Assembly (NCBI GenBank): GCA_021780755.1
Contig: JAJXYF010000010.1
Span: 173,238-237,237, forward strand
Source of the DNA: Deltaproteobacteria bacterium
Lineage (GTDB): Bacteria; Desulfobacterota; Binatia; Binatales; Binataceae
DNA: 64,000 bases
Direction: 5' to 3'
The notes under the pieces: model-generated
What the model was told of the DNA's origin: nothing
Databases searched by the model: none
The model's input: only the letters and a program-made list of their open reading frames with translations
Position numbers and translations under genes: made by a program
Part shown: positions 1,718-18,310 of the stretch, one piece after another
How positions within the stretch are numbered: position 1 is the first letter of the stretch
Layout: each line of letters begins with the position of its first letter

Positions 1718-1850
1718 CGCGGCGGCCGGCGTTGTCGTAGCGTGCGCGCGGGCGTATCGTAAGAAGTCCGCGGCGGTCCCGCAGCCCATCTCACCACCGG
1801 TTTACTCTAAAAATGTCGCTTGATAGCCTTCAATCGGACGGGACACGCTG

Positions 1851-2450: not shown

Positions 2451-2454
2451 AGCA

Positions 2455-3240: not shown

Positions 3241-3255
3241 GCGGCGTTGGAGTAG

Positions 3256-4818
3256 ATGGCGCTCGAAGTAAAACTCGGACAGGACCTGCGGCTCCGCCAG
3301 CAACTGGTGATGACGCCGCAGTTGCAGCAGGCGATCAAGATCCTGCAACTGTCGCTGCCGGAGTTGGAGGCCGTCGTCCAGAGCGAACTCGACTCCAATC
3401 CGATGCTCGAGCCGCTTGACCAGAGCGTGGCGGAGGCGGCCGCCAACAGCGAGACCAACGAGACCTCCGAGGCCGGCGCCGAGCCCGAACCGTTGCAGCC
3501 CGAGCCCGAGGGGGACGGCGCGGGGACTATCGGCGAGAGCGACTGGGAGCCGGTGACCGAAGATCGGCCGGCCGAAATGCTCGCGACCGAGGCGCCCGAC
3601 GCCGCCGTCGAGTTGCGCGAGCTGAACAATCTGGAGAAGCTCGACTGGCGCGAATACCTCGAAAATTATTCCAACAACTGGCAGGACGGCGAGGCCCCGG
3701 ATTCCGACGACGACCGCCGCCAGACGCTCGAAAACACGCTCACCCGTAAGACCTCGCTCGAAGACCATCTGATGTGGCAGCTTAGGCTGTCGAACCTCGA
3801 CGAGACCGATCAGCGCGTCGGCGCGACGATCATCTACAACCTGAGCGACGACGGTTATCTCGAGACGCCGCTCGAAGAGCTGGCGGCGCAGCTCGAATGC
3901 GATGTGGCGCGGGTCGAGCGCGTGTTGAAGCGCGTGCAGCGGCTCGATCCGCCGGGCGTAGGCGCGCGCGACTTGCGCGAGTGTCTCTACGCGCAACTGA
4001 CCAACCTCGGGATGGAAGAGTCGCTCGCCGCGCGTATCGTGCTCAACCATCTGGGCCTGCTCGAGAAACATCGCTACAACGAAATCGCCAAAGCGCTCGG
4101 CATATCGCTCGAGATGGTGGGCGAGGCGGCGAAAGTGATCGGGCTGCTGGAGCCGAAGCCGGGGCGGGATTACGGCGGGCAGGAACCGGCCTATATCGTG
4201 CCCGACGTGTACATCCAGAAGATCGGCGACGAGTTCATGGTGACGCTGAACGAGAGCGCGGTGCCCCGTCTGCGTCTGGCAAATTACTATCAGCGGGTGC
4301 TCAACGACGCGTCGGCCGGGGCCGAGACCAAGGAGTACCTGCAGGAGCGGCTGCGCTCGGCGCGCTGGCTGGTGAAGTCTATCTTTCAGCGCCAGCAAAC
4401 CATCTTCAAGGTCGCCAATTCGATTGTGAAGTTTCAGCGCGCGTTTTTCGAGCACGGCATCGGCCAGTTGAAGCCGCTGGTCTTGAAGGACGTGGCCGAG
4501 GACATCGGCATGCACGAGTCCACCATCAGCCGTGCGACCGCGAATAAGTACGCGCACACGCCGCAGGGTATCCATGAGCTCAAGTTCTTTTTCACCTCGG
4601 GGGTCAAGGGGACCGACGGCGGGGACGTCAGCGCCGAGACCGTGAAAGAAAAGATTCGCGCACTGGTGACCGGCGAAAAGCAGGGCGATCCACTGTCCGA
4701 CCAGGCCCTCGCCGACATCCTGCGCGTCGATCAAATCGATATTGCCCGGCGCACCGTGGCCAAGTACCGGCAGGCGCTGGGGATCCTGCCTTCGGGCCGC
4801 CGCAAGCGGCTCGGCTAG
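3256..4818 (+). CDS. rpoN: RNA polymerase sigma-54 factor
   Basis: N-terminal activator-interaction region (LRLRQQLVMTPQLQQAIKILQLS), acidic linker, C-terminal RpoN box ARRTVAKYR. Confidence 0.95.
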   Translation: MALEVKLGQDLRLRQQLVMTPQLQQAIKILQLSLPELEAVVQSELDSNPMLEPLDQSVAEAAANSETNETSEAGAEPEPLQPEPEGDGAGTIGESDWEPVTEDRPAEMLATEAPDAAVELRELNNLEKLDWREYLENYSNNWQDGEAPDSDDDRRQTLENTLTRKTSLEDHLMWQLRLSNLDETDQRVGATIIYNLSDDGYLETPLEELAAQLECDVARVERVLKRVQRLDPPGVGARDLRECLYAQLTNLGMEESLAARIVLNHLGLLEKHRYNEIAKALGISLEMVGEAAKVIGLLEPKPGRDYGGQEPAYIVPDVYIQKIGDEFMVTLNESAVPRLRLANYYQRVLNDASAGAETKEYLQERLRSARWLVKSIFQRQQTIFKVANSIVKFQRAFFEHGIGQLKPLVLKDVAEDIGMHESTISRATANKYAHTPQGIHELKFFFTSGVKGTDGGDVSAETVKEKIRALVTGEKQGDPLSDQALADILRVDQIDIARRTVAKYRQALGILPSGRRKRLG

Positions 4819-4846
4819 CCTCATCTAGAGTACGGGGTGTAGGCGA

Positions 4847-5299
4847 ATGACCAAGACCAAAGTGGGAAAGAAAACGCGGGTGGCGGCGGCGAGTGCGACG
4901 TCACGGACCTTGCGCAAGGCGCAGGTTCCAACAGTGGCGGTGACCGTAACTTTTCGCCATGTCGAACCGAGCGCGGCGATCCGGACCTACGCGGAGCGGA
5001 AGTTTTCGCATCTGGCGAAATTCCTCAAGCGGGCGTGCCAGGCGCATTTGATTCTCACCATCGACAAATATCGGCAACATGGGGAAGTTACGCTAAAGTC
5101 CGGACGTCTGGCGGTCACCGCGCAGGAGGAGACCAAGGACCTCTATGCCGTCATCGATTTGCTGGCGGACAAGGTGGGACGCCAGTTGAAGAGCCAGCAG
5201 GGTAAAGCCAAAGACAAGAAGGTGCGCGCGCTGTCAACCGGAGAGGTTCTCAGCGCCGCCGAGGAACAAACGCCGAACAGCGGTACAAGCCGCGTCTGA
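4847..5299 (+). CDS. hpf: ribosome hibernation promoting factor / sigma-54 modulation protein
   Basis: 150 aa. Position directly after rpoN. RaiA/HPF-like sequence. Confidence 0.8.
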   Translation: MTKTKVGKKTRVAAASATSRTLRKAQVPTVAVTVTFRHVEPSAAIRTYAERKFSHLAKFLKRACQAHLILTIDKYRQHGEVTLKSGRLAVTAQEETKDLYAVIDLLADKVGRQLKSQQGKAKDKKVRALSTGEVLSAAEEQTPNSGTSRV

Positions 5300-5303
5300 G
5301 CCG

Positions 5304-5765
5304 ATGAAAATCACTGAAATTCTGACACCGGACCTGGTGTTGCCGGATTTGCACGGCACCACCAAGGCCGAAATTTTGCGCGAGCTGGCGCAATGTCTCG
5401 CGGCCAAGTTCAAGGATATCAATGTTGACGATCTGGCGGCGGTGCTGGCCGAACGCGAGCGGCTGGGATCGACCGCGATCGGCGACGGCATCGCGATTCC
5501 GCACGGCAAGATCCGCGGCGCGACGAAGATCGTCGGAGCGTTCGGGCGCCACACCGCGGAGGTCGATTTCGAATCCCTCGACGGGGGGCCGACGCACCTC
5601 TTTTTCGTCCTGATCGCGCCCGAGGATTCGACCAGCCTGCACTTGAAGGCGCTCGCACGGGTATCGCGCCTGCTCAAGGACGCAGCCTTCCGCGAGCGGC
5701 TGCTCGCCGCGCCCGACGCCGGCGCGATCTATGGTCTGATCGTCGAGGAGGACGGGCGCTACTGA
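5304..5765 (+). CDS. ptsN: PTS IIA-Ntr (nitrogen regulatory EIIA)
   Basis: 153 aa with the phosphorylatable His region GIAIPHGK. Conserved rpoN-operon position. Confidence 0.85.
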   Translation: MKITEILTPDLVLPDLHGTTKAEILRELAQCLAAKFKDINVDDLAAVLAERERLGSTAIGDGIAIPHGKIRGATKIVGAFGRHTAEVDFESLDGGPTHLFFVLIAPEDSTSLHLKALARVSRLLKDAAFRERLLAAPDAGAIYGLIVEEDGRY

Positions 5766-5829
5766 ACGCACGCCGCGACGGGCGGGCGCGATCGAACGGC
5801 CGTCGCGAACGGGAGGCCTAAATTCCGCG

Positions 5830-6720
5830 ATGAGTCCCGGCGCAAACCAGACGCATCACGAGCCCCGCCTGATCATCGTAACCGGGGTCTCCGGATCGGG
5901 GCGCGTTTCCGCGATGCGCGTGCTCGAGGATCTGGGCTTCTATTGCGTTGATAATCTGCCGGTCGCGCTGGCGCCGACCGTGGTCAAACTGGCGCGCGAA
6001 CGCAAACCCGCCATCGCCAACGTCGCGCTCGGCATCGACGCCCGCGAGCGCATTTTCTTTCCCCAATGGCCACAGGTGCTCGACGAGCTCGAGCGCGACG
6101 GTTTCAGCCCCGACATAATTTTTCTCGACGCCTCCGACGAAGTACTGGCGCGCCGCTACTCGGAGAGCCGCCGGCCCCATCCGATGGCCGAGAACGGAGC
6201 AAGCGTCGCCGACAGTATCCGGCTCGAGCGCCTGGCACTGGCCGAGATGCGCGAGCGGGCCACCCGCATCATCGACACCACCACACTCACGGTACACGAA
6301 CTGCGCGAAGTGATGACCGCGGCGGTGCTGCGGGCCGCAGATGGCACGCGGATGGCGATCGCGCTGGTCTCGTTCGGCTACAAATACGGACAGCCGGTAG
6401 GCCTCGATTTGGTGCTCGACGTGCGCTTCATCCCCAATCCGTTTTTCGTGGCGGAGTTGCGCCCGCTGACTGGACTCGACGCGCGCGTCGGCGAATACGT
6501 GATGGCGCAGCCGGAGGCGCGGCGCTTCATCGACGAGATTGGACGCCTCCTGGAATTCCTGCTGCCGCTCTATCGGCGAGAGGGCAAAAGCTACCTGACG
6601 ATCGGACTCGGATGCACCGGCGGACGCCATCGGTCACCGGTGCTCGCGCGCGAATTGCGCGATCGGCTGGCGCAGATCGGCTTCGAAGCGGTCGTTCGCG
6701 ACCACGACATCTCACGCTGA
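5830..6720 (+). CDS. rapZ: RNase adapter protein RapZ (P-loop NTPase, YhbJ family)
   Basis: Walker A motif GVSGSGR near the N-terminus. 296 aa. Follows ptsN as in the canonical rpoN operon. Confidence 0.85.
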   Translation: MSPGANQTHHEPRLIIVTGVSGSGRVSAMRVLEDLGFYCVDNLPVALAPTVVKLARERKPAIANVALGIDARERIFFPQWPQVLDELERDGFSPDIIFLDASDEVLARRYSESRRPHPMAENGASVADSIRLERLALAEMRERATRIIDTTTLTVHELREVMTAAVLRAADGTRMAIALVSFGYKYGQPVGLDLVLDVRFIPNPFFVAELRPLTGLDARVGEYVMAQPEARRFIDEIGRLLEFLLPLYRREGKSYLTIGLGCTGGRHRSPVLARELRDRLAQIGFEAVVRDHDISR

Positions 6721-6746
6721 ATGCGCAATCAGCACGCGCGGACCGT

Positions 6747-7529
6747 TCAGTTCATAATGCTGCCGGCGTCCACGTTGATGGTCTGTCCGGTCACCCCCGA
6801 TGACAGGTCGCTCACGAGGAAGGTCGCGACGCGCGCCACCTCGTGCTCGGTGACCATCCGCTGCAATGCGGCGGTCGAAGTGAACCCCTTCTTGATTTGA
6901 TCGTAGGGCACGCCCATCGCCTCGGCGCGCGCGCGAATCACGCGTTCGATGCGGTCGCCCTCGACCGCGCCGGGGCATATACAGTTAACGCGGATGCCGT
7001 CGCTGCCCCATTCGCCGGCGAGGGTCTGCGTCAACCCGATCATCGCCCACTTGGAGGCGGCATAGGGCGAGCGCAACGGATAGCCGCGCCGGCCCGCGCC
7101 CGACGAGATCATCAGGATGTTGCCCGCGTGCTGTTTGACCATCGAGGGGATCGCGGCGCGCGACGCGAGCCACGCGCCGGTCAGGTTGATGTCGAGGACT
7201 TCCTGCCATTCCGCCAGCGCCATCTCGGTGCTGCGCTTGGTCGGTCCCGCGATGCCCGCGTTGTTCACCAGGATATCGACGCGACCGAACGCTTTGACGG
7301 TTTCATCGACCATGCGCGCGCAATCGGCTTCCTTCGCGACGTCGGCGCGAATCGCGATGGCGCGGACGCCGAGTTTCTCGACCGCCGCGCGGGTTTCGTT
7401 GAGCGGACCTTCGGAGCGCGCCGCGAGCGCGATCTTCATTCCATGCTGGGCGTAGAGCAGGGCGATTTCCTTGCCGATTCCGTAGCCGCCGCCGGTAATT
7501 AGCGCGACCTTTTCCTTCAACTCCTGCAT
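6747..7529 (-). CDS. short-chain dehydrogenase/reductase (SDR) family oxidoreductase
   Basis: Internal Met MQELKEKVALITGGGYGIGK (TGxxxGxG Rossmann motif). NNAG and YxxxK SDR signatures. Start chosen at the conserved N-terminus. Confidence 0.8.
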   Translation of the reverse strand: MQELKEKVALITGGGYGIGKEIALLYAQHGMKIALAARSEGPLNETRAAVEKLGVRAIAIRADVAKEADCARMVDETVKAFGRVDILVNNAGIAGPTKRSTEMALAEWQEVLDINLTGAWLASRAAIPSMVKQHAGNILMISSGAGRRGYPLRSPYAASKWAMIGLTQTLAGEWGSDGIRVNCICPGAVEGDRIERVIRARAEAMGVPYDQIKKGFTSTAALQRMVTEHEVARVATFLVSDLSSGVTGQTINVDAGSIMN

Positions 7530-7775
7530 CGGGAGGTTCCTCTGTGAATTGCGACCAATGGCGCAATAGGATTCTGAGGCCGAATCTAGTCGCATTCCGC
7601 GCGCCATGACAAACGCGAAATCAGGCTCTCGCGCCGAAAACCCCATTGGCGGCTATTTCGTCCATTGAAGCCAGGTCGGCACGACGCACGGCTTAATATT
7701 CGCGCGGTTGGGTCCATTCGCGCGAAGTGCCTTGTCACAGATCTGACCGCTCCGTATCATTACACCACCGCACCA

Positions 7776-8480
7776 ATGGCCGCAGTCAAAGAAATAACCG
7801 TGCCACCGGGCAAATCGGCCGATGGCAATTCGACGCTTCTGAACCTGCTCAGGATTTCGATCCTGTTATTGCTGGTGGGCGGATCGATCTACTTGCTGGC
7901 GACCCACGCCGAATGGTTCGAAAATCCGCGCCTGGTCAAGGTCGAAGTGACTCGGTGGGGTGCGTGGGGACCGATCGCCTTCATCCTGCTCTTCGCGCTG
8001 GGGCCTTCGTTCCTGGTGCCCGGCGCGGTGATGACGATCGCGGGGGGACTCGCGTTCGGCGCGTTTTGGGGTGCGCTGTGGTCGGTTATCGGATCGGACC
8101 TGGGCGCGTTGATTGCGTTCGGCGCGGGGCGCTTTCTCGGCCGCTCTTTCGTCCAGAAATTTGTTGGTGAGCGCTTCCAGACCCTGATGGGGCGCTTGGC
8201 GCGCAATGGCTTCTACATCATTCTGTACCTGCGCATCGTTCCGGTGATTCCGTACAACGCGCTCAATCTGCTGGCCGGCGCGTCGCCGATCGAATTTCGT
8301 GATTACTTCTGGGCGAGCGCGATCGGCATCCTTCCCGGTACGATTCTATTTGCGATGCTCGGCGACGCGCTGTGGCATCCGACGCAGCCCCGCTTCTTCA
8401 TCGCGGTCGGGCTAATCCTGTGCTGCTTCGCGGCGGGCGAGATCTTCCGCCGCCGCAACAAAGTCACCGTCGCCGTGTGA
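7776..8480 (+). CDS. DedA/TVP38 family membrane protein
   Basis: Multi-TM protein carrying the DedA signature G...FLG..R.VP..R. Internal Met start MAAVKE chosen. Confidence 0.75.
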   Translation: MAAVKEITVPPGKSADGNSTLLNLLRISILLLLVGGSIYLLATHAEWFENPRLVKVEVTRWGAWGPIAFILLFALGPSFLVPGAVMTIAGGLAFGAFWGALWSVIGSDLGALIAFGAGRFLGRSFVQKFVGERFQTLMGRLARNGFYIILYLRIVPVIPYNALNLLAGASPIEFRDYFWASAIGILPGTILFAMLGDALWHPTQPRFFIAVGLILCCFAAGEIFRRRNKVTVAV

Positions 8481-8731
8481 TTTTCGGATAGCGTCGGTGG
8501 GCATTCGCGGGACTACGTCGTTTCAAAAATAATAGCGGGCGGACATCATCGATTCATAAGCCTGTCAGAGCTCACGAGCTCGTCATCGAAAGTAAATTCA
8601 TCCGCTCCCTACAGGCCCGGGTTGTGATCCGCCGGAAGAATCGGACTCGAGAGCAGCTAATCGTTCCGGCTGCTCATTACCGTAAGCTCGCACGCTCTCG
8701 CTCCAATCACAATTTTCGGTTGCCGTAATTC

Positions 8732-8760
8732 TTGACACAGTAGACTTCCTGTAATTTAAT
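8732..8760 (+). promoter_or_regulatory. near-consensus sigma70 promoter (TTGACA-N17-TTTAAT) driving the low-GC islet ORFs
   Basis: TTGACA at 8732-8737 and TTTAAT at 8755-8760 with a 17-bp spacer, about 50 bp upstream of the first islet ORF. Confidence 0.5.
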
Positions 8761-8813
8761 ATCGTCAGCGTTACGGTATTACCGAAATGGATCAAAATAA
8801 GAGAGGCCGAGCG

Positions 8814-9557
8814 ATGGCAACAGAGCCGCCGAGTGAAGAAAAACAGCCGGAGAACAAACAAGCTCCGCCCTATGTACCATATCAAACCTTTGAAGCCTTT
8901 CTGGAGAGGCTCAAAGGCACTGTGACACCTACGCGTATCGACTCGAGCGTGTTGCGACACTTGTCTGGCTCCACGCAAACTCAGCTTCTTTCGGCGCTCA
9001 AGTTTCTCGGACTGATAAAGACCGACGGCGCGGTCAACGAATCGCTTAGGCGGATGGTCATCGCCTATAAAACTCAGAAATGGAAAGAGGAGTTGACCGC
9101 GCTGATCGCGGCGCCTTATCGGCCGATAATAGGAGACCTCGACATCGCTACTGCCACCTCTGCGCAACTGAAAGAAAGGTTCCGCGAAGCAGGCGGCGTC
9201 GAAGGAGATACCGTCGAAAAATGCATCCGTTTCTACCTGATGGTACTGAAAGAAGCCGGTGTGCAATTTTCACCGCTCCTTAAAATTCGGCAGCGCATTG
9301 CTCGCGGGACAGGTTCGAAGCGGGCGAACAAGCAGCGCAGCGCCGCGCCCTCGGCTGTCTCTGAAAACGGAGATGAGGATTTCCAAGCACCCGAAGGAAC
9401 TTTCAAGATTCCCTTGGATATTCTTGGGATTGCCGCAGTCCTCTATTTGCCAACAGAAATCACACAGAAGCGCTGGGACGCAATCAGTCAATATGTCAAG
9501 ACGCTGATCGGCTTGAGAGCCACCGCTATGGGGGCTGACGAAGATGAAGGCAACTAG
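8814..9557 (+). CDS. hypothetical protein (low-GC islet gene 1, ~247 aa, no recognised family)
   Basis: Long ORF in the AT-rich islet. The ATG at 8814 has a good SD (AAGAGAGG, 7 nt spacer); the ATG at 8787 is the alternative. Soluble, charged protein. Confidence 0.5.
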   Translation: MATEPPSEEKQPENKQAPPYVPYQTFEAFLERLKGTVTPTRIDSSVLRHLSGSTQTQLLSALKFLGLIKTDGAVNESLRRMVIAYKTQKWKEELTALIAAPYRPIIGDLDIATATSAQLKERFREAGGVEGDTVEKCIRFYLMVLKEAGVQFSPLLKIRQRIARGTGSKRANKQRSAAPSAVSENGDEDFQAPEGTFKIPLDILGIAAVLYLPTEITQKRWDAISQYVKTLIGLRATAMGADEDEGN

Positions 9558-9598
9558 GACAAATCGAAAAGGGTTGGCTGCGGGAGCAGTTTGAGGCG

Positions 9599-9967
9599 AT
9601 GACCGACGATCCGTCCATTCTCGGCTCTGTAGTCGTTTACCGGCGCATACAGGCTGCATATTTGGATTTTGACATGACAGGCAAACCGGTCATTTCGGAT
9701 GGAGCCTTTCGGACGAAAGCCCTGTCAGTGTTTCGATGCGACAAGGTAACTGAGTCCGAAGTCTTGAACGGCTACCCAATGGACGGGTTGGTTCAGGTCA
9801 GCATTCAAGCTATTCGCGATGCGGGCTGCATTGTGGAATACGACGAACCGCCAACCGGACATATTTGCGTGTATAAAAAAGACGCCCCAGGTTCACGCAT
9901 CTCTAGCGGCTCGGCGGCCAGAATGGCGCGTGCAGCGACTTGGGTTAAGGTACCGATAAAGCCGTAA
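9599..9967 (+). CDS. hypothetical protein (islet gene 2, 122 aa)
   Basis: ORF 42 bp downstream of gene 1 on the same strand. No family recognised. Confidence 0.4.
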   Translation: MTDDPSILGSVVVYRRIQAAYLDFDMTGKPVISDGAFRTKALSVFRCDKVTESEVLNGYPMDGLVQVSIQAIRDAGCIVEYDEPPTGHICVYKKDAPGSRISSGSAARMARAATWVKVPIKP

Positions 9968-9975
9968 CAGTGATG

Positions 9976-10320
9976 TTAACGCCAGCGCATCCAGTTTAGG
10001 AGCGCGATTACATGCCGCTCATAATCCTCTGCAATCTCGCCCTCAGTGCTCGGTTTACCATCAATGATGGTCAAATAGGCAAGGTGTTCGCTGTCTGGCA
10101 GAATTTCCAGATCGAGTTCTCTACTTGTGCCTTTCCACTCGAACTGAACACCACCAATTTCCGTGGGAAATACGAACGGAGCGGGCGACCGTTCGCTATC
10201 AATTAAAAGTGCAATCTGACGAGCACGTTCGAGTGCTCGAGAGCACGGGGACGTGGGCGATTGTTCAAGCCCCTTGAGGGCGTCAAGCGCACTCCGTTGC
10301 GGGGTTTGCAATTCAGGCAT
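9976..10320 (-). CDS. hypothetical protein (islet gene 3, 114 aa, convergent to gene 2)
   Basis: ORF with a GGGGG SD-like motif 8 nt upstream of its ATG. No family recognised. Confidence 0.4.
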   Translation of the reverse strand: MPELQTPQRSALDALKGLEQSPTSPCSRALERARQIALLIDSERSPAPFVFPTEIGGVQFEWKGTSRELDLEILPDSEHLAYLTIIDGKPSTEGEIAEDYERHVIALLNWMRWR

Positions 10321-10636
10321 TGCTTTCTACCCCCATGGTTACAGTTTAGTCACTGTGCGCCCCGGAAGATACTGCAATATTTTGGGATCAACAAGTTTGG
10401 CTGGAGCGTTTCGCCTACCATGGTCATGCTGCTTTACTACTGCTTTTGCTGCGTTCTTCCGTGGTTCGCCGCCGTGTGGGCCTTTACGCCCTTGAGGCCT
10501 TCGAGCCGTCTTAGTGCCGCCGCACGGCCCTCTGCGGACCTCCTTTTCGCTCAAATCCAACCCGTTCGTTAGCATCAATGTAATGCGGGTGCGCCCCGTG
10601 TTTAACGATGGTGAAGGCCGGAAGCGCCGACCCGGA

Positions 10637-11911
10637 TCAGGTGCCGGTTTCCCAGCTCGTCAGATACTTCTTCTGCTCCGCCGAGAGCACGTCGATTTTG
10701 ATGCCCATCGCGGCGAGCTTCAGGCTCGCGACTTCGTCGTCGATCGCCTGCGGTACGTTGTGCACCGCTATCGGCAGCGGATCGATGGTCGCGGTCCAGC
10801 GCGCGGCGAGCGCCTGCGTCGCAAAGCTCATATCCATCACCTGCGCGGGATGACCCTCGGCGCACGCCAGATTGACCAGCCGGCCCTGGCCCAGAATGTA
10901 CAGCGTGTGCCCGTTGCCGAGCAGGTACCCGTCGACGTGATTGGTGACGTTGCGATTGATCTGCTTGGCCGAGTCGTTGAGATAGGCGATGTCGATCTCG
11001 ACGTCGAAATGGCCCGAGTTGCACAGGATCGCGCCGTCCTTCATCAGGCTGAAATGCGACGGGTTGAGCACCGAGCGGTCGCCGGTCGCAGTGATGAAGA
11101 TGTCGCCCACCTTCGCCGCCTCGACCATCGGCATCACGCGCAGCCCGTCCATCGCGGCTTCCAGCGCGCGCACCGGATCGACTTCGGTCACGATGACGTC
11201 GGCGCCGAGGCCGCGCGCGCGCGACGCGATGCCGCGTCCGCACCAGCCGTAGCCCGCGACCACCACAATCGAGCCCGCGATCAGCACGCCGGTCGCGCGG
11301 ATGACGCCGTCCATGGTGGACTGCCCGGTGCCGTAGCGGTTATCGAACAGATGCTTGGTCTGGGCGTCGTTGACCGCGACCACCGGAATCTTGAGCGCGC
11401 CGTCCTGGGACATCGCGCGCAAGCGGATCACGCCGGTGGTGGTCTCCTCCATGCTCGCGCGGACTTCGGTCGCCTGCGCGAGGAACTCGGTATGCAGCAT
11501 GCTGACGAGGTCGGCGCCGTCGTCCATCGTGATCGTCGGATGGCGCTGAATCACCGCACGCAGATGGCTGTAATAGGTGTCGCGATCCTCGTCGTGAATC
11601 GCATACGCCGGGATGTCGTACTCGGCCACCAGCGCCGCAGCCACGTCGTCCTGGGTCGAGAGCGGATTGCTCGCGCAGCAGAAGACCTCCGCGCCGCCGG
11701 CCTTGAGCGCGCGCAGCAGATTGGCGGTTTCGCAGGTGATGTGCAGGCACGCGCCGAGGCGCTGCCCCTTGAGCGGCAGTTCCTTGGCGAAGCGTTCGCG
11801 GATGATCCGCAGCACGGGCATCTGCCGGTCGGCCCATTCGATTCGTTTGCGGCCATTCTCGGCCAGCGCGAGGTCGCGAACGTCGTGCCCGTTGCCCTTG
11901 GACTTGGGCAT
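10637..11911 (-). CDS. ahcY: adenosylhomocysteinase
   Basis: 424 aa with unmistakable AhcY sequence throughout, including the NAD-binding GYGWCGRG motif. Confidence 0.95.
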
Positions 11912-12057
11912 AAGAATCCTCCTGGTGACGATAATCCTGTGTCAGTGACGAACATCCCGAACCGACAATTTTCCGCCGCGAATTGCGCGGCAGGGCTAGC
12001 CCACCTAATCGGGGGCCGGTCGGGTATTTATTCTAATCCAAGCCCCGCGTGGATCAC

Positions 12058-13245
12058 TCAGCGGCCGCCGCCCACTCCAAACGCACTTTGCAGCGCGTTA
12101 ATCATATCGACGCTCTCCCACGGGAAGAGGCCGTGACTCGCCGGACGCCCGAAATGTCCGTAGGCGGCCGTCTCCTGGTAGATCGGCCGCTTGAGATCGA
12201 GCGTCTTGATAATCCCGGCCGGGCGGAAATCGAAAAGCTCGCGCAGCGTTGACGAGAGCTTATGGTCGGGGACGACGCCGGTGTCGAAGGTGTCGATCAG
12301 GATCGAGACCGGCTCGGCGACGCCGATCGCGTAGGCGACCTGGATTTCACATTTTGCCGCGAGTCCCGCGGCGACGACATTCTTGGCCACGTGGCGCGCC
12401 ATGTAGCAAGCCGAGCGATCGACCTTGCTCGGGTCCTTGCCCGAGAACGCGCCGCCGCCATGACGGCCATAACCGCCGTAGGTGTCAACGATAATCTTGC
12501 GGCCGGTCAGTCCGCAGTCGCCATGTGGCCCGCCCACGACGAAACTGCCGGTCGGGTTGACATGGATAATCGTTGATTTGTCGAGGTACTGCTCGGGAAT
12601 GGTCTTTTTAATCAGCTCCTCGATAATCGCCTCGCGGATCGTCGCGTAACCGACGGCGGGGCTGTGCTGAGTCGAGATGACCACCGTGTTGACGCCGACC
12701 GGACGCCCATTGACGTAGCGCACGGTCACCTGGCTCTTGCCGTCAGGGCGCAGGAAGTCGAGCTTCTTTTCCTTGCGCAGGCGCGTCAGGTTTTCCATCA
12801 GGCGATGGGCCAGCGCGATCGGCAGCGGCATCAGCTCGGGCGTTTCGTCGCAGGCGAAGCCGAACATCAGACCCTGGTCGCCGGCGCCTTGCTCCTTGAA
12901 CAGGCCCTGGCCCTCGGTGACGCCCTGCGAAATGTCGGGCGATTGCGGCTCGATCGCCGTCAGTACGGCGCACATATTGCCGTTGAAGCCGACCTCGTCG
13001 TTGTCGTAGCCGATATCGGTCGCGGTCTTGCGCGCGATCTTGATGAAGTCAGGGCTGTGTTTCGAGGTAATCTCGCCCGCGAGCACGATCAGGCCGGTCT
13101 TCACCAAGGTCTCCAAGGCGACGCGCGAATGGGGATCCTCGGCGATCAACGCGTCGAGGACGGCGTCGGAAATCTGATCGCACATCTTGTCCGGATGGCC
13201 TTCGGAGACTGACTCCGAAGTAAACAGGAAATCTTTTATCGGCAT
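12058..13245 (-). CDS. metK: S-adenosylmethionine synthetase
   Basis: 395 aa. N-terminus [14 protein letters not shown] and the GGGAFSGKD motif. Confidence 0.95.
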
Positions 13246-13593
13246 GAACGGCGGCTCCTTGGAAATACGGCTTAATGCGTCGCGCCCCGACGAAACATCG
13301 CCCCGGCGCAGTGCGGTGAACTGTGAATCAAACGATATCGCGATTCGCTGGACGGTCGGTGCGCGGAGCAGTCTTGGGGCAAAGTTTCGGTTCGTCCCTA
13401 ATCGATCGCGGCTGAAATACGGATCGCACGGCTAAAGTATCGATCGCTCTGATATAACTAACCGTAATACTCTGGTCAAGATTACACTAGCCGACCTCGC
13501 CAGCCGAACTCACCAGTCAAGGCTGCGCAACCAGCAACCGGATCCGCGCGGTGCGTTAAGATTCCTGATGGCGGTTCTGCGAGTCACTATAAT

Positions 13594-13872
13594 TTATTCT
13601 TCATTAAAACGCTGTTCGAATAGTTCCTTGATGGCGCTCAGGGCGGCTTGCGCGTCCGGCCCTTCGACCTTGACCTTGAGTCGGGTGCCCTGGCCGGCGC
13701 CGAGCATGATCAAATTGGTGACGCTGCGGGCATTGACCGCATGCTTGCCGCTGCCCAGCGTTACGGTCGAGTTAAACTTCTTGACGGTGTCGGCAAGTGT
13801 CGAGGCGGCGCGCAGATGAAGTCCGAGGCGGTTCTTGATTTCGAGCGTGGCTTCCAGTGCATTCACAGCCAC
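13594..13872 (-). CDS. ptsH: phosphocarrier protein HPr
   Basis: HPr-like sequence with active-site His in GLHLRAAS and the regulatory Ser region. The GTG start at 13872 gives ~92 aa; the ORF track's upstream ATG at 13938 is the alternative. Confidence 0.6.
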   Translation of the reverse strand: MAVNALEATLEIKNRLGLHLRAASTLADTVKKFNSTVTLGSGKHAVNARSVTNLIMLGAGQGTRLKVKVEGPDAQAALSAIKELFEQRFNEE

Positions 13873-13987
13873 AACGATAAATGGAAGCGGGCGACGGGTA
13901 AACTTGCGGCGGGTGTGAGCCGCCACATCCTTCCACACTCCGAATCAACGCGGAAAGTAAGCGCCGGCGGCAAAGCTTTGATGGCGG

Positions 13988-15028
13988 CTATGTGCCATTG
14001 CGACCGGCACGCGGCTCGGCGGGTTCGTCTTCGCCGATCAGTCCGGCCGTGAAAAGTTCGCGCAGGCGCGGCTCGACGAGGTTGTCGCGCGTGCTGCCTT
14101 CGCGCAGGCGCCATGCTTTGAGTGGAATCACCGCCTTGGCCATATTGCGATGGCCGCCAGCGCTGCCGATATCGCCGAACAAACGCTTGACGGTATCGCC
14201 CGCGTTTCCGCGGCCGATGCCATGATTGCGCACCGCGATCACCAGGTTGGGGCCGAGCTTGCCGGCGACCGCGACCCATTCGACGCCCTCGAACTGCAGG
14301 CAGAAGTCGGCCATCTGCACGATCAGGTCGTCGCGTTCGACCGGCCCGAGATGCAGCGCAATGAGGCCGTCGCGCAGAACCAGCCGGCCCATCGCACGCG
14401 ACAGGATACGGGCGAAGCTCACCGGCAACTCGGGGCGATCGATCTGGCGCAGCAGATTGTAGTTGGCGAGCGGATAGAGATGGGTGAAGGCCTCGATATC
14501 GTTTTCCGTTACCCGCCGCGATAGCGCGAGCGTATCGCTGCGGATACCGTAGAGCAGGGCGGTCGCGATCCGTTCGCTGATGCGCTCGTCGGCCCCGATG
14601 AAGTACTCAGTCATAATCGTCGCGGTGGCTCCGTAGTCGACCCGCACGTCCTCGAACGGCGCCAAGCCGGCTTCGTAGCCCGGATGGTGGTCGATGACGA
14701 TATCGGCGCGGGGAATACGATCGCCGAAGTAGGGCGGCTCCACGTCAACCATCGCGATGCGTTGGAATTCCCGCAGTTCCTCGGTCGCGGCCGGCGCGAT
14801 TTCAATCTCCAGCAGATGCATCATGGTGCGGTTTTCGGGCCGCGTGACCGGCTTGAAGGCAAAGATCGGAGTGGTCAACTTGTTGCGTCCGAGCAGCGCG
14901 CGCAAGGCGATCGCGCTCGACATCGCGTCCGGGTCGGGGTCATCCTGAAGCACGATCGCGACGCGATCGCCCTCGTCAACCAACGCTCGGAGTTCGCGGA
15001 TTTTTTGCCTGGTGAAGGTTTGATCCAT
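13988..15028 (-). CDS. DHH-family phosphoesterase (NrnA-like oligoribonuclease / pAp phosphatase)
   Basis: DHH motif (IVIDHHP) and DHHA1 C-terminal region (GGGH). Start set at the internal Met MDQTF; Met MSEQV at 15079 is the alternative. The upstream 200 codons of the ORF are compositional read-through. Confidence 0.72.
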   Translation of the reverse strand: MDQTFTRQKIRELRALVDEGDRVAIVLQDDPDPDAMSSAIALRALLGRNKLTTPIFAFKPVTRPENRTMMHLLEIEIAPAATEELREFQRIAMVDVEPPYFGDRIPRADIVIDHHPGYEAGLAPFEDVRVDYGATATIMTEYFIGADERISERIATALLYGIRSDTLALSRRVTENDIEAFTHLYPLANYNLLRQIDRPELPVSFARILSRAMGRLVLRDGLIALHLGPVERDDLIVQMADFCLQFEGVEWVAVAGKLGPNLVIAVRNHGIGRGNAGDTVKRLFGDIGSAGGHRNMAKAVIPLKAWRLREGSTRDNLVEPRLRELFTAGLIGEDEPAEPRAGRNGT

Positions 15029-15269
15029 AGAATCAGCCCGCGCGGCGAGATGTTTCCACCCGCGGACTTGCTCTGACATTGCCGCTAGCGGCGGCGGCCC
15101 CGTACTTCTAAAGTAGGGCTGGCAGGACGGCGCGACGGGTGGGATGCCCGAACGCTCGGCTTTGCTCCATTGGATCGGCTTTAACATAGCGTCGGAAGTC
15201 GAAGCAATCCGGGGGTAGTCAGCCGAGGCAGACCGGCGCGGGCGCGCAAGACCGACCTCTGATGAACGA

Positions 15270-15485
15270 ATGATGAACGAAGAAAAATGCGAAATCTGCC
15301 GCCGGCCAACCACCGAATGGCTGCTCCGGATGACGGTCGAGGACCGCGCGGGCTTCGCCGAGACCGCATATATTTGCGCCAATTGCGGGATTAAGCTGCG
15401 CTTGGCCTCGGAAAAGACCCGCGACCTGCAAATCGACCCATGGGTCCGTGAGGCGGTCGCGCGCGTACTCAAGGGCAAGGAATAG
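15270..15485 (+). CDS. small zinc-ribbon protein (71 aa; CxxC...CxxC)
   Basis: High GC3, two Cys pairs (CEIC, CANC). Ends 8 bp before lysK. Confidence 0.4.
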   Translation: MMNEEKCEICRRPTTEWLLRMTVEDRAGFAETAYICANCGIKLRLASEKTRDLQIDPWVREAVARVLKGKE

Positions 15486-15492
15486 GAACCGC

Positions 15493-17088
15493 ATGGCATC
15501 GGCCCCGCAAAACTCGAACGAACTCGACCTCTGGCCTTACGAGGAGGCGCGCCGCCTGGCCGAGCGCGTCGGCGGCTATGAGCCCGCGCGCCCGGCGGTG
15601 TTCCAGAGCGGCTTCGGTCCATCAGGACTGCCGCATCTCGGAACGATGGGCGAGGTTTTGCGGCCGGCCTACGTACGCCATGCCTTTGGACTGCTATCGC
15701 CCGCGCGGCCCCAGCGCTTCGTGGTCTTTATCGACGACATGGACGGCCTGCGCAAGGTCCCCGAGAACATTCCGAATCGCGAGGCCTTCGCGCCTCATCT
15801 GGGCAAGCCGGTCTCGCGTATCCCCGACCCGTTTGGCGACTGCCACGACAGTTTCGCCTCGCACATGGTCTCGCTGCTGGGATCGTTCCTGGCCCCGGTC
15901 GAGGTTGAGTATGAACTGATGCGCTCGAGCGACGTGTACGGCAACGGGGCATTCGACGAGGCCCTCAAACTGGTGCTCGCGAAACATCAGGAGATCATTC
16001 GCATCGTCGCGCCTACGCTGCGCGAGGAAAATCGGGCCGGATGGTCGCCGGTGATGCCGCTGTGCCCGGCTTGCGGGCAGGTGAACTCGACGCTGGTGAC
16101 CGCGTACCATCCGGAGCGCGGCGCGGTCGAATTCTCCTGCGAGCGCAGTTTCGGCGGCGCCCACGGATGCGGCTTTCGCGGCGAGCAGAACATCCTGGGC
16201 GGGCGCGCCAAGGTGCAATGGAAGGTCGATTGGGCGCTGCGCTGGTACGTGCTCAAGGTCGATTACGAACTCTACGGCAAAGACCTCATCGACTCGGCGC
16301 GGCTCTCGGGCCAGATCGTAAAGCTGCTCGGCGGGCGGTCGCCGCTCGGCTTCGCCTTCGAGATGTATCTGGACGAAGAGGGCCACAAGGTCTCGAAGTC
16401 GGTCGGACGCGGGGTGGGCGTCGAACAGTGGCGGCGCTACGCGCCGATCGAGGTGCTCAAGTATTTTCTCATGCTGAATCCGCGCCGCGCGCGCAAATTG
16501 TTCCTCGAGGCGATTCCGCAATACGTCGATGAATACCTCGACGCGCTACGCGAATGGAGCACGGCCGAACCGGCGGCGCGCCGCAATTCGCCGCTCGAGT
16601 TCGTGCTGCAGCGCGACAGCGCGCGATGCTTCAATTCGTCCGTCACCTTCAGCCTGATTATGAACCTGGTGCCGGCGCTGGGCACGGCCGACCGCGACCT
16701 TATCTGGAATTATCTGGTCAATTACGATTCCGGAATTGCCGGCGACGCCCAGACCGAGGCGCTCGCACGCAACCTGATGGAATGCGCGCTGAACTTTTAT
16801 CGCGACTTTATCGAGCCGGCCAAGCAGCCCTATGCCCCGAGCGAGAGCGAACGCGCACAACTGCTAACGCTCGCAAGCTGGCTCGAGGCGAATAGCGGCG
16901 CGGCGGCCGAAGAGATCGAAAAGGCGATCTACGATATCGGTCGCGCCAATTACGACAAGCCCGGCAAGATCTTCCCGGTGATCTATCGCATGCTGATGGG
17001 ACAGGAGCGCGGCCCCCGCCTAGGCGCGTTCATCCGCCTGGCCACGCCGGGAAAGATCGCGCAAGCGCTGCAAACGTCGCTCGCCTGA
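15493..17088 (+). CDS. lysK: class I lysyl-tRNA synthetase (LysK type)
   Basis: Class I aaRS HIGH motif as HLG and KMSKS as KVSKS. Overall LysRS class I architecture. Internal Met MASAPQ with an AGGAAC RBS. Confidence 0.82.
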   Translation: MASAPQNSNELDLWPYEEARRLAERVGGYEPARPAVFQSGFGPSGLPHLGTMGEVLRPAYVRHAFGLLSPARPQRFVVFIDDMDGLRKVPENIPNREAFAPHLGKPVSRIPDPFGDCHDSFASHMVSLLGSFLAPVEVEYELMRSSDVYGNGAFDEALKLVLAKHQEIIRIVAPTLREENRAGWSPVMPLCPACGQVNSTLVTAYHPERGAVEFSCERSFGGAHGCGFRGEQNILGGRAKVQWKVDWALRWYVLKVDYELYGKDLIDSARLSGQIVKLLGGRSPLGFAFEMYLDEEGHKVSKSVGRGVGVEQWRRYAPIEVLKYFLMLNPRRARKLFLEAIPQYVDEYLDALREWSTAEPAARRNSPLEFVLQRDSARCFNSSVTFSLIMNLVPALGTADRDLIWNYLVNYDSGIAGDAQTEALARNLMECALNFYRDFIEPAKQPYAPSESERAQLLTLASWLEANSGAAAEEIEKAIYDIGRANYDKPGKIFPVIYRMLMGQERGPRLGAFIRLATPGKIAQALQTSLA

Positions 17089-17093
17089 GCGCT

Positions 17094-18242
17094 TCAGACG
17101 AATTCGGCGAAGATCGAATCGGCGAGTTCGAGGCCGCGCTCGCTCAGGCGGACGCGCCCGTCTTCACGCAGCAGCAGGCCGGCGTCGAAGAGGCTCACGG
17201 TCCGCGCCCCGAAGTGTGTGTCGAAGCTGACGCCGAACCGCAGCTCGAAATCCGATAGATCGAAACCTTCGCGCAAGCGCAGATTAAGAAAGACGAATTC
17301 CCCGGCCGCAATCTCCGCATCGACGGTTTCCGCACCCGCCTCCGCGAGACCGCCGGCGAGCGCCGCGGCGCTGTAGCGCGCGGGCATCCGCTCGTTCCAC
17401 CATCGCCGTCCGCCGGCGCCGTCGCGCGCGAAGCTGTGGGCGCCCGCACCGATACCTAGATAGCTCTGGCCGCGCCAGTAAGTCAGATTGTGGCGCGCTT
17501 CGTGGCCGGACTGCGCGTAATTCGAGATCTCGTACATCGGATAGCCGCGGCGCGGAAGTTCGTCGCGCACCAGCGCGTACATGGCGGCCTGATCGTCGTT
17601 GGGCAGCGGCATGATGCGTCCGCGCTTCATCTCGGTGAAGAACGCGGTGCCCTCCTCGAAGGTCAGGTTGTAGGCCGAGATATGGTCGGGACCGAGCGCG
17701 ATCGCCTCGGCGATATCGCCGCGCACGTCGTCGCCGGTCTGCCCGGGAACGGCGAAAATAAGGTCGAGGTTGAGGCGCTCGAAGCCCGCGCGACGGGCCT
17801 CGCGGGCCGCCTCACGAGTTTGGTCGGCGCTATGGATACGGCCGAGAAATTTCAGAATTACGGGATTGAACGACTGTGCGCCGAAGCTGATTCGGTTGAC
17901 GCCCGCCGCACGCATCCCGACCAGCTTGGAGAAATCGACCGTTCCCGGATTGCCCTCGAGCGTGATTTCGATGTCCGGCTCGAAGCCGAACCGGCGCTGC
18001 GCTGAATCAAGGATGCGGCCAATCGATCGCGGATCGAACAGCGATGGCGTGCCGCCGCCAAAGAAGATCGTGCGCAACGGATTGCCGTGCCACGTCGGTT
18101 CGGCCGCCCGCCGCTCCATCTCGGCGATCAGCGCGCGGACGTATTCATCCTCCGGCCACACCGCCGCCGCATGCGAATTGAAATCGCAGTACGGGCATTT
18201 CGAGTGGCACCACGGAATATGGATATAGAGCGAGAAACTCAT
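17094..18242 (-). CDS. hemW: radical SAM heme chaperone HemW / coproporphyrinogen III oxidase-like
   Basis: N-terminal CxxxCxxC radical-SAM motif (CHSKCPYC). HemN/HemW-like body. 382 aa. Confidence 0.85.
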   Translation of the reverse strand: MSFSLYIHIPWCHSKCPYCDFNSHAAAVWPEDEYVRALIAEMERRAAEPTWHGNPLRTIFFGGGTPSLFDPRSIGRILDSAQRRFGFEPDIEITLEGNPGTVDFSKLVGMRAAGVNRISFGAQSFNPVILKFLGRIHSADQTREAAREARRAGFERLNLDLIFAVPGQTGDDVRGDIAEAIALGPDHISAYNLTFEEGTAFFTEMKRGRIMPLPNDDQAAMYALVRDELPRRGYPMYEISNYAQSGHEARHNLTYWRGQSYLGIGAGAHSFARDGAGGRRWWNERMPARYSAAALAGGLAEAGAETVDAEIAAGEFVFLNLRLREGFDLSDFELRFGVSFDTHFGARTVSLFDAGLLLREDGRVRLSERGLELADSIFAEFV

Positions 18243-18310
18243 CGGACGGCTCAGGCAACCTGGCTAATATATCACGTCGGGCCGATCGCGCGTGCCATGC
18301 GCCGCAGGGT

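Follow-up and report, generated by a model that had tools for sequence, protein, structure and literature searches.

A putative ART-like toxin–immunity gene pair related to the candidate system PDC-M32 on horizontally acquired DNA of Candidatus Binataceae

The PADLOC candidate PDC-M32 and the toxin–immunity pair TreTu–TriTu are the described systems closest to the locus presented here. PDC-M32 comprises PDC-M32A (~375 aa) and PDC-M32B (~130 aa), for example on the Rhodococcus qingshengii plasmid pN9T4-2 (NZ_AP026693; our locus L037); it is a purely computational candidate without published function, and in the literature a single paper names it, merely among the PADLOC matches of Sinorhizobium prophages. 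TreTu is the C-terminal ART toxin of a Salmonella Rhs-main protein, and its immunity protein TriTu neutralises it by capping the NAD+ pocket (PDB 7zhl/7zhm; PMC9825190). In the 64-kb window analysed here (the whole stretch of DNA, 64,000 nucleotides), a low-GC islet carries three genes, which we call A, B and C. By homology the pair B–C is a stripped-down relative of PDC-M32, and we consider it rather likely to be an uncharacterised ART-like toxin–antitoxin or immunity module on acquired DNA.

The relationship to PDC-M32 extends to both genes of the pair. C (114 aa; 9976..10320, minus strand) matches PDC-M32A at positions 276-336 of 375 only (E 1.2e-9), against positions 1-371 for the genuine member in L037 (E 1.7e-168); it is a homolog of the C-terminal ~60-80 aa, with the common motif P-x-(V/I)-(F/Y)-P-(T/S)-x-x-GG-(V/I)-Q-(F/L)-E-W, whereas the ~270-aa N-terminal region is absent from it. 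The family profile of B (122 aa; 9599..9967, plus strand) aligns with genuine PDC-M32B (hhalign 95.5%, E 1.5e-8; HMMER 5.4e-5); the PADLOC PDC-M32B models gave no hmmscan match for the window's own B and E 0.031 for its homolog in L001. The A->B order of PDC-M32, with its tiny or overlapping junction, is that of the co-directional C->B loci L001, L015 and L052, whereas B and C are convergent in the window. PDC-M32, which has no Pfam domains, structure or published mechanism, gains from this kinship a testable hypothesis, namely an ART-fold toxin with a lid-type immunity domain.

TreTu–TriTu resembles B–C, as modelled, in combining an ART-fold toxin of ~115-120 aa and unorthodox triad with an alpha/beta immunity protein of ~90-115 aa, and the pocket capping by TriTu is the mechanism that we propose for C. 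However, no sequence similarity to B or C is detectable, and TreTu forms the C-terminal tip of an Rhs protein delivered by the T6SS, its immunity gene lying downstream. B stands alone as a cytoplasmic protein, and Rhs/T6SS carrier genes are absent near the B–C loci. The target of TreTu, EF-Tu D21, should not be taken for granted in B. Tse2–Tsi2, the H1-T6SS toxin–immunity pair of Pseudomonas aeruginosa (PDB 5ako), differs too: Tsi2 is an all-helical dimer, unlike C, which is modelled as a TriTu-like alpha/beta protein, and Tse2 is T6SS-exported, with no sequence-level match. DarT–DarG, ParT–ParS, RES–Xre and MbcT–MbcA are co-directional operons with macrodomain, Xre-HTH or DUF2384 antitoxins, and their toxins of 150-220 aa exceed the 122 aa of B and do not have its conserved residues (R, S, H). 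As in type II toxin–antitoxin systems, B and C are two small, adjacent, co-inherited genes; their convergence in the window is atypical for the co-directional bicistronic operons of that type, and C does not conform to an autoregulating antitoxin with a DNA-binding domain.

B is a minimal ADP-ribosyltransferase-fold protein, its structure model containing the split beta-sheet of the ART fold. ART triads, on strands 1, 2 and 5, are of the types H-Y-[EDQ], H-H-h and R-[ST]-E. S43 and H88 do not vary across 53 B-family members, in which R15, F37 and R73 reach at least 90% conservation; placed by secondary-structure order, not by superposition, R15 lies on strand 1, S43 on strand 2 and H88 at the start of strand 5, giving R-S-H. 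Residue E83 is conserved among close homologs only. Since the third triad position has His where R-S-E ARTs have their catalytic Glu, the chemistry of B could differ or be absent. The window's B matched nothing in Pfam, NCBIfam, PHROGs or PADLOC; none of the 53 family members matched Pfam, permissive thresholds included, RES and DarT being absent, and PDB sequence and profile searches gave chance matches only. Judging from the modelled fold, B is most likely a NAD-using, growth-arresting enzyme of ART type, and the ART toxins of bacterial conflict would gain with it a family of free-standing proteins whose R-S-H constellation is atypical.

C, separated from B by 8 nt between the stop codons, is the putative immunity protein or antitoxin. 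Its model comprises two helices, a five-stranded sheet and a C-terminal helix, and its best structural match is a toxin immunity protein of TriTu type; the fold is a common one, with Med17, MotA, frataxin and T3SS chaperones also scoring 6-9, and Foldseek with the model returned nothing at E < 0.05. Searches against Pfam, NCBIfam and PDB sequences revealed no HTH, RHH or AbrB match, the PDB sequence search matching nothing at all. On this modelling, C most likely belongs with the small alpha/beta immunity proteins exemplified by TriTu, and the two folds suggest that it neutralises B. Gene callers left C uncalled in the public copies of the contig; one of the two genes of the pair has thus been overlooked by automated gene calling. 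The conserved 5' region of C (10321..10398, minus strand) holds the SD GGGGGTAG (10334-10327) and a candidate promoter, TTGTTG (10394-10389)-N17-TATCTT (10371-10366). This block is kept in the window, L007, L008, L009 and L010, and nothing is conserved upstream of B.

The functional core of the islet is the tightly linked pair B + C. Searches of 5.8e9 proteins yielded only ~16 close homologs for each of the two families, on shared contigs, and C adjoins B in every locus with enough sequence, in at least eight genomic contexts and two orientations. The genes converge in the window, as they do in the clade of at least 60% identity, with junctions from a gap of 10 nt to an 11-nt overlap, and are co-directional (C->B) in more distant loci (L001-4, L014/15, L052, L037), with gaps of 7-24 nt among the co-directional pairs; in L052, a B relative at 29% identity follows a protein resembling C (hhalign 97.7%, E 1.5e-12). 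One B–C locus lies on an integrase-bearing element; phage, plasmid and IMG/VR collections contained no relatives of A, B or C, except a PDC-M32A domain match on two Rhodococcus plasmids. Neither A nor A', a protein taking its position elsewhere, is present in most B–C loci (L008, L009-13, L039-40, L044-47, L001-4, L014-15), and flanking A' and the small gene p83 decay while B–C stay intact. Decay of toxin type is seen in L049-51, B being frameshifted and C intact in L051. All three genes are intact in the window, their SD and start codons are conserved, and dN/dS values (0.12-0.18; ~0.1-0.2 for each of A, B and C) indicate purifying selection. The initial annotation had proposed a two-gene A–B unit with a separate convergent gene; the convergence of B and C was seen, but the functional unit is B + C and A is facultative. 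Because B has an ART-like and C an immunity-like fold and the two always occur together, they most likely form an uncharacterised toxin–antitoxin or phage-defence module, and the earlier suggestion of a compact defence or toxin–antitoxin-like system thereby acquires fold and neighbourhood evidence.

Gene A (247 aa; 8814..9557, plus strand) ends 41 nt before B and is a facultative companion of the pair. It is probably a divergent DUF5343 protein (PF17278): aligned to positions 1-134 of the 140 in the model, it scores 25.9-26.0 bits, just under the gathering threshold of 27 bits; the domain is matched by 12/12 A homologs (best E 8.2e-9), one close homolog being named by NCBI a DUF5343 domain-containing protein. 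The earlier statement that none of the proteins belongs to a nameable family thus holds for sequence-family searches with the window's B and not for A or C. In A, a charged low-complexity linker joins a conserved N-domain to a C-terminal segment of ~45 aa that is likewise conserved; pN is 0.30-0.35 against a pS of ~0.75, with dS near saturation. A 256-aa version starting at 8787 is supported neither by homologs nor by the SD. A PDB sequence search with A returned no matches, PADLOC gave a weak match to PDC-M34A, and literature searches for DUF5343, PF17278 and PDC-M34 found no paper.

Upstream of A lies a promoter-like site, TTGACA (8732-8737)-N17-TTTAAT (8755-8760), on the plus strand (8732..8760). 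The initial annotation had called it near-perfect; the motif is present, but its strength was overstated, and a consensus scan misses it because there is no A at position 2 of the -10 element. The -35/-10 positions are kept upstream of A homologs in L017 (TTGACT-N18-TATAAT), L020 and L038. Between the -10 and the SD, an imperfect palindrome, GTTACGGTATTACCGAAATGG (8770..8790, plus strand), is a candidate operator; the same position is occupied by a perfect inverted repeat, TACGGCAT/ATGCCGTA, in L017 and by TACGGCA/TGCCGTA in L038. In other loci A' (a DNA-binding protein, HARE-HTH-like + HTH_7) stands at the position of A; remote homology between A and A' was ruled out (hhalign 0.4%). A probably regulates its own expression and serves the pair as an accessory or regulatory partner. 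In type II R-M systems of convergent layout that encode a controller (C) protein, PvuII and EcoRV among them, the toxic and protective genes face each other under separate promoters, and a small DNA-binding regulator with a palindromic operator precedes the toxic gene and is co-transcribed with it. The arrangement of the islet is reminiscent of these systems, which are likewise found as low-GC cargo in such hot spots; their biochemistry is entirely different, however, DNA binding by A is putative, and most B–C loci have no upstream regulator.

The islet (~2.0 kb; approximate edges 8554..10572) is horizontally acquired DNA; in this Candidatus Binataceae genome it occupies the spacer, equipped with a terminator, that separates the convergent core genes dedA and ahcY. 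The flanks were correctly named in the initial annotation, dedA by its VTT domain. GC is 0.50-0.56 in 300-nt windows across 8450-10400, against ~0.64 elsewhere, and this is the deepest dip in the 64 kb. The islet has a GC of 0.530, other 2019-nt windows averaging 0.645 (sd 0.019, minimum 0.596; z = -6.1); the drop first given as 67% to 50% is real and significant, its size being slightly overstated (64% to 53%). GC3 is low as well, at 0.585 in A, 0.569 in B and 0.504 in C against 0.79-0.89 in SDR, dedA, ahcY and metK. Twelve related Binataceae MAGs have SDR-dedA-ahcY-metK in common and none contains A, B or C, which speaks for the accessory cassette first suggested and not for syntenic core genes. 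In 9/12 the dedA–ahcY spacer is essentially empty (70-340 nt) and in 3/12 it holds other low-GC cargo; in L023 an R-M system occupies this very site. The spacer is a cargo hot spot in this lineage, and in Binatota a terminator spacer flanked by core genes repeatedly captures differing small conflict cassettes (the B–C pair, the R-M system, others). The source organism is an uncultured soil bacterium of the phylum Binatota. Similarity to the related MAGs stops at ~8496 on the left and returns at ~10624 on the right. The left insertion edge is marked by the left arm and half-loop, AGCGGGCGGACATCATCGAT (8534..8553), of a bidirectional dedA/ahcY terminator hairpin; L022 and L032 have the whole hairpin, AGCGGGCGGGCATCATCGATGATGCCCGCCCGC, and the empty sites L024-L033 have equivalents of it; the window keeps the left half only. 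A degenerate copy of the right half begins near 10572, from which the right edge is deduced. A repeat search around the islet found no terminal direct or inverted repeats, short chance matches only, and its ORF list contains no integrase or transposase gene.

Several other explanations of the islet have to be weighed against a toxin–immunity pair. It could be a three-gene system in which A, as putative sensor or controller of toxin transcription like the C-protein of convergent R-M systems, is integral and B–C alone incomplete. The trio does recur in two diverged loci (the P0035 contig, beside ispF, and L041), A and B lie close together behind one candidate promoter with none conserved before B, the promoter and palindrome of A are conserved, the unrelated DNA-binding A' takes the same position in other loci, and the resemblance to PDC-M34A points the same way. 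Both A and A' are nevertheless absent from most B–C loci, A homologs exist without B–C (L017-21, L038), and A and A' are unrelated, so that we hold an integral role of A to be unlikely on this comparison. That the islet is an inert remnant of past insertions with unused genes, as the frameshifted small ORF upstream of C, the absence of recombinase and terminal repeats and the uncalled gene C might suggest, is hardly credible given three intact genes under strong purifying selection with conserved SD and start codons.

Other doubts concern the role of B. It may be a benign NAD+-dependent or RNA-modifying enzyme (a Tpt1/KptA-like 2'-phosphotransferase, or one for RNA-end ADP-ribosylation or repair), with C as its regulatory or substrate-presenting partner. 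In Tpt1, the N-terminal RNA-binding lobe carries most of the catalytic tetrad, and B is without this lobe; patchy distribution, low GC, variable hot spots, the integrase-bearing element, the toxin-type decay, the immunity-protein match of C and the homology to the defence-island candidate PDC-M32 likewise make a benign function improbable. We regard it as very improbable that B is a secreted effector for which C serves as chaperone or immunity protein, whether as a T3SS pair in the manner of AvrPphF ORF2/ORF1 or as an orphan polymorphic-toxin tip (T6SS/CDI) and the cognate immunity gene. Of 86 B-family representatives (E<=1e-3), almost all are stand-alone (~65-190 aa) and none is fused to Rhs, PAAR or CdiA, and no secretion-system genes lie beside B–C in the neighbourhoods examined. 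B moreover has a conserved start codon and N-terminus of its own, and an N-terminal secretion region has no room, as the ART fold starts at ~residue 10.

For the toxin–immunity pair, the mechanism that we propose is that B would use NAD+ to modify an essential protein or nucleic-acid target and thereby arrest growth, and that C would bind B 1:1, covering the NAD+/substrate cleft. The two would act as a type II-like toxin–antitoxin module, in addiction or abortive infection; C would be expressed from its own conserved promoter region, and B, which has none, would be transcribed from the promoter-like site upstream of A. The analysis shows the insertion, the hot spot, the linkage of B and C, their folds, the homology to PDC-M32 and the purifying selection; that B uses NAD+ and is toxic, that C neutralises it, the part played by A and any anti-phage function are what we infer. 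More tentatively, B may represent an undescribed clade of miniature (~120 aa) R-S-H ART-fold enzymes and the C domain a portable 'lid' immunity module, free or fused to the ~270-aa sensor domain of PDC-M32A; the Binataceae pair would then have been re-wired to a convergent R-M-like layout, in which C has its own promoter and expression of the toxin is driven by A or A', a DNA-binding controller encoded upstream. If so, the R-S-H site could point to unusual chemistry or to an unusual target, such as nucleic-acid ends (the case in Tpt1) in place of protein side chains, and PDC-M32 would be a sensor-gated ART abortive-infection system of which the window's pair is the minimal addictive core. This two-domain core, at ~0.7 kb, is open to direct synthesis and assay.

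ORFs of ~247, 122 and 114 aa, together with a 79-codon basic ORF, were found where the initial annotation had placed them. An Rfam search of 8300-10800 (E<=1) matched no RNA family, so that 10321-10636 is not a known sRNA or riboswitch, and a promoter and terminator scan gave 0 consensus promoters (1.2 expected by chance) and terminators at chance level only. The 79-codon ORF (10339..10578, minus strand), once taken as a possible gene, was ruled out as a real basic protein because, compared with the small ORF conserved in relatives, its 3' half reads in a different frame. It is a decayed relic of p83 (...GGKKGGPARAAKLT..RESASKAARARWAKR), the small basic gene upstream of C in relatives, which is intact in L007 and L043 only and truncated or stop-interrupted in L008-L013, L039, L040 and L051; the window's copy carries a 2-nt deletion and stop codons in the ancestral frame.

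The islet between dedA and ahcY (8554-10572) is inserted DNA, and the spacer that holds it is an insertion hot spot. The islet has a GC content of 0.530, against a mean of 0.645 in the other 2019-nt windows (sd 0.019, minimum 0.596; z = -6.1), so that the dip between housekeeping genes described in the initial annotation is real; 300-nt windows lie at 0.50-0.56 from 8450 to 10400, with ~0.64 for the whole window, and GC3 is 0.50-0.59 in the three islet genes versus 0.79-0.89 in SDR, dedA, ahcY and metK. The reading frames proposed there were all recovered in an ORF listing, namely gene A (8814..9557, + strand, 247 aa), gene B (9599..9967, +, 122 aa), gene C (9976..10320, -, 114 aa) and a 79-codon ORF (10339..10578, -), and the flanking genes do encode a VTT/DedA protein and an S-adenosylhomocysteine hydrolase. 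No Rfam family matches the islet region, and a repeat search found no repeats flanking it. A DedA-protein scan with one genome per species returned 13 relatives, several titled Candidatus Binataceae and the rest labelled as delta-proteobacterial or unclassified MAGs. The order SDR-dedA-ahcY-metK is kept in 12 of the 13, and A, B and C are absent from all 12; these are clearly not syntenic core genes, and their proposed accessory status stands.

Nine of these 12 relatives have 70-340 nt between dedA and ahcY, and the other three have 657, 1483 and 1657 nt, compared with 2156 nt in the window. The three long spacers carry different cargo, with a GC content of 0.52-0.55: a type II restriction-modification system made up of a MutH/Sau3AI-like endonuclease and an N6/N4 DNA methyltransferase (locus L023, 8766-10262), a 290-aa and a 66-aa protein of no family (L022, 8793-9898), and a DUF6968 protein (L032, 8735-9310). 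At empty sites, the convergent dedA and ahcY are separated by a GC-rich hairpin, which is their shared bidirectional terminator and corresponds to AGCGGGCGGGCATCATCGATGATGCCCGCCCGC in L022 and L032. The window retains just AGCGGGCGGACATCATCGAT of this hairpin, at 8534-8553, and the islet therefore starts in the hairpin loop; the hairpin is intact in L022 and L032, with the cargo on its other side, and is gone in L023. Because the insertion points differ relative to the hairpin, the insertions are independent of one another and hit a single spacer at slightly different positions. The three MAGs with long spacers are also the closest to the window.

A search of 5.8 billion clustered proteins yielded 16 homologs of B, 17 of C and 12 of A, all from metagenomes or MAGs. 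B and C are under purifying selection, with pairwise dN/dS between the window and its homologs of 0.12-0.18 and ~0.12, respectively; for A, pN is 0.30-0.35 and pS ~0.75, dS being near saturation. A, B and C are all real genes. At every locus with a long enough contig, both those from the protein look-up and 13 further metagenome loci, B adjoins C. The neighbours of the pair vary: they are dedA and ahcY in the window, a CoA-transferase gene in L007, EF-P in L008 and a PDZ protein gene in L009-13, L039 and L040; on the P0035 contig the pair lies by ispF, L042 and L043 have an IS1-like transposase gene beside it, and in L001 and L002 it is surrounded by an integrase/DnaB/HTH_17 element. In close relatives, where B is 60% identical or more, the order is convergent, with anything from a +10 nt gap to an 11-nt overlap, and the more distant loci L001-4, L014/15 and L052 have a co-directional C->B order with gaps of 7-24 nt. 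Identity falls to 47% for the B partner in L001 (E 1e-31) and to 29% for the B relative in L052, which is preceded by a 157-aa protein whose 80 C-terminal residues resemble C (hhalign 97.7%, E 1.5e-12). Since the linkage outlasts both inversion and divergence to 29% identity, there is strong evidence that B and C are a functional pair. When loci are compared, conservation of the DNA begins exactly at the ATG of B, with none upstream of it, and on the other side extends through C and ~200 nt further, a stretch that contains a conserved Shine-Dalgarno sequence and a candidate promoter for C (10366-10394). In L009 and L040, the 3' end of A', an unrelated protein found in the position of A at some loci, remains as a remnant upstream of B. 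Decay of the flanking genes (A' and a small basic ORF upstream of C) around an intact B-C is the pattern expected of an addictive pair.

Protein B matches nothing in Pfam, NCBIfam, PHROGs or PADLOC and has no PDB sequence match. It has an ART fold, its fold-comparison list including KptA/Tpt1 (7.3 and 6.3), AvrPphF ORF2 (6.9), Tse2 (5.8; 23% identity), TreTu and NarE (4.9 each), a RES toxin (4.8) and DarT (4.7); domains of diphtheria and pertussis toxins, C3 and PARP are listed too. When 1.84 billion representatives were searched exhaustively with a profile, 86 family members emerged at E<=1e-3, nearly all of them stand-alone proteins of ~65-190 aa (mostly 120-145 aa); Pfam domains were found in none of the 53 members scanned. 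Two residues, S43 and H88, never vary across the family, and three more (R15, F37 and R73) show conservation of 90% or above. R15 lies at the end of strand 1, S43 in strand 2 and H88 at the start of strand 5, and this secondary-structure order suggests that the three residues occupy the canonical ART triad positions, with His replacing the usual Glu.

The model of C (pLDDT 87.8) consists of two helices, a five-stranded meander and a C-terminal helix, and the protein carries the motif PFVFPTEIGGVQFEW. Foldseek returned nothing significant for this model; the CdiI, TriTu and TriX immunity proteins are among its few high-probability matches, which is suggestive but not decisive. TriTu is known to neutralise TreTu by closing its catalytic site like a lid (PMC9825190). 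C also matches positions 276-336 of the 375 of PADLOC model PDC-M32A (E 1.2e-9), and a tblastn search of plasmids with C led to a 377-aa hypothetical protein of Rhodococcus qingshengii pN9T4-2, whose gene is followed by an overlapping 143-aa gene. PADLOC assigns this plasmid pair to PDC-M32A (E 1.7e-168) and PDC-M32B (E 2.1e-41), the two components of a computational defence candidate. The B-family profile matches the plasmid PDC-M32B (probability 95.5%, E 1.5e-8; HMMER 5e-5) and the C profile matches its PDC-M32A (1.7e-7). By eye, B shares LWR..P, SxAFR, LS and GH with PDC-M32B, and C shares P-x-(I/V)-(Y/F)-P-x-x-x-GG-(I/V)-Q-(L/F)-E-W with PDC-M32A. These homologies make the window pair a minimal relative of PDC-M32, one that keeps just the C-terminal immunity-like domain of PDC-M32A. 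L052 looks like an intermediate, its B-like gene coming third, behind a 274-aa gene and the 157-aa C-like gene. PDC-M32A and PDC-M32B have no Pfam domains, and a single paper in the literature names PDC-M32, listing it for Sinorhizobium prophages as a hypothetical hit of PADLOC.

A scores 26 bits against DUF5343 (cutoff 27), all 12 of its homologs match the family (best 8e-9) and a close homolog in Ca. Binataceae is named a DUF5343 protein by NCBI; A can be classed from sequence as a divergent member. It has weak similarity to PADLOC PDC-M34A, and a literature search found nothing on DUF5343 or PDC-M34. The promoter-like motif TTGACA-N17-TTTAAT is present at 8732-8760, but its earlier description as near-perfect has to be tempered, the -10 lacking A at position 2 and a consensus scan making no call. 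The -35 and -10 positions are conserved upstream of A homologs elsewhere and are followed by a palindrome, perfect in L017 and degenerate in the window (8770-8790). Conserved promoter-like hexamers with a palindrome suggest that A is autoregulated, and A may have a regulatory role. A' is a 255-aa protein unrelated to A (L007, 1709-2476, -; L042, 1694-2392; L043, 1250-1840), with a resolvase-type HTH_7 and a resemblance to the RNA polymerase delta N-domain (E 0.0024), which we take to be a HARE-HTH domain; it adjoins the IS1-like transposase gene in L042 and L043.

The most likely reading, favoured here as a whole over its rivals with some reserve, takes B for an ART-fold toxin that uses NAD+, and C for an antitoxin or immunity protein occluding its active cleft. 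The pair would act as an addictive or abortive-infection module, with a role in defence, and would spread by hitch-hiking, both into intergenic hot spots and onto integrative elements. In the clade of the window, C would be expressed from its own conserved candidate promoter, and B would rely for its expression on whatever lies upstream, which here is the A promoter. Terminators do not fit into the 8-nt tail-to-tail junction, and the convergent transcripts therefore probably overlap; one may speculate that this adds antisense or interference control. ART-fold toxins with a cognate neutraliser are already known from DarTG, ParST, RES-Xre, MbcTA, Tse2-Tsi2 and TreTu-TriTu. Compared with these toxins, the B family has not been curated, is smaller than any of them (~120 aa) and shows an R-S-H constellation; compared with their neutralisers, C is TriTu-like, with a domain also found fused in PDC-M32A; and the B-C clade differs in being convergently arranged and without a published function.

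Other explanations have been weighed against this toxin-neutraliser pair. A stands before B-C in the window, next to ispF in the P0035 contig, and in L041, as would be expected if the three genes formed one obligatory system under the control of A; A homologs occur without B-C in L017-21 and L038, most B-C pairs lack A, and the association is facultative, leaving such a system rather unlikely. B could be a benign Tpt1-like RNA or NAD enzyme, which we consider quite improbable. To a further reading, in which B is a secreted effector and C its chaperone or immunity protein, we give very little weight. That the islet is an inert remnant is the least credible of all, with decay in its small basic ORF on one side and purifying selection on B and C on the other.

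This 79-codon ORF is ruled out as a component of the system. It overlaps DNA homologous to a small, very basic gene upstream of C in relatives, with the C-terminal motif GGKKGGPARAAKLT..RESASKAARARWAKR and no Pfam or PADLOC family, which is intact only in L007 (629-880, 83 aa) and L043 (2596-2856, 86 aa). In the window copy (~10400-10560, -), a 2-nt deletion shifts the frame and stop codons interrupt the ancestral one; the gene is likewise truncated or interrupted in L008-L013, L039, L040 and L051, and the ORF is thus a frameshifted relic of a gene decayed in most loci.

In three metagenome contigs (L051, 1440-1809; L049, 815-1149; L050, 733-1067) B is frameshifted, which may reflect toxin inactivation or assembly error; L051 keeps an intact C, and L049 and L050 keep part of it. 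In L001 and L002 (~400-20000), the C->B pair lies within an element that has a tyrosine integrase, a DnaB-type helicase, HTH_17 excisionase-like genes and many ORFans, and that adjoins glutathione synthetase; the module seems to be carried there by an integrative or prophage-like element. After the A homolog of L017 and L018, a convergent pair (L017, 6662-7460; L018, 7157-7462), made up of a 79-aa XRE-type HTH gene and a 194-aa gene of no family, forms another TA-like module beside a DUF5343 gene. Automated gene calling missed C in public copies of the contig (L005, 3377-3718; L006), where its place is taken by a called 64-aa ORF of the other strand; the exact C sequence is absent from a collection of 15 billion proteins, and C homologs in other metagenomes were called. 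Beyond the islet, ahcY (10637-11911, -) and metK (12058-13245, -) stand in tandem with no SAM/SAH riboswitch at Rfam gathering thresholds, and a 114-aa ORF at 13594-13938 (-) is presumably HPr-like, judged from its sequence by eye. The sole RNA gene within the window is a tRNA-Ser(GGA) at 61398-61489 (+).
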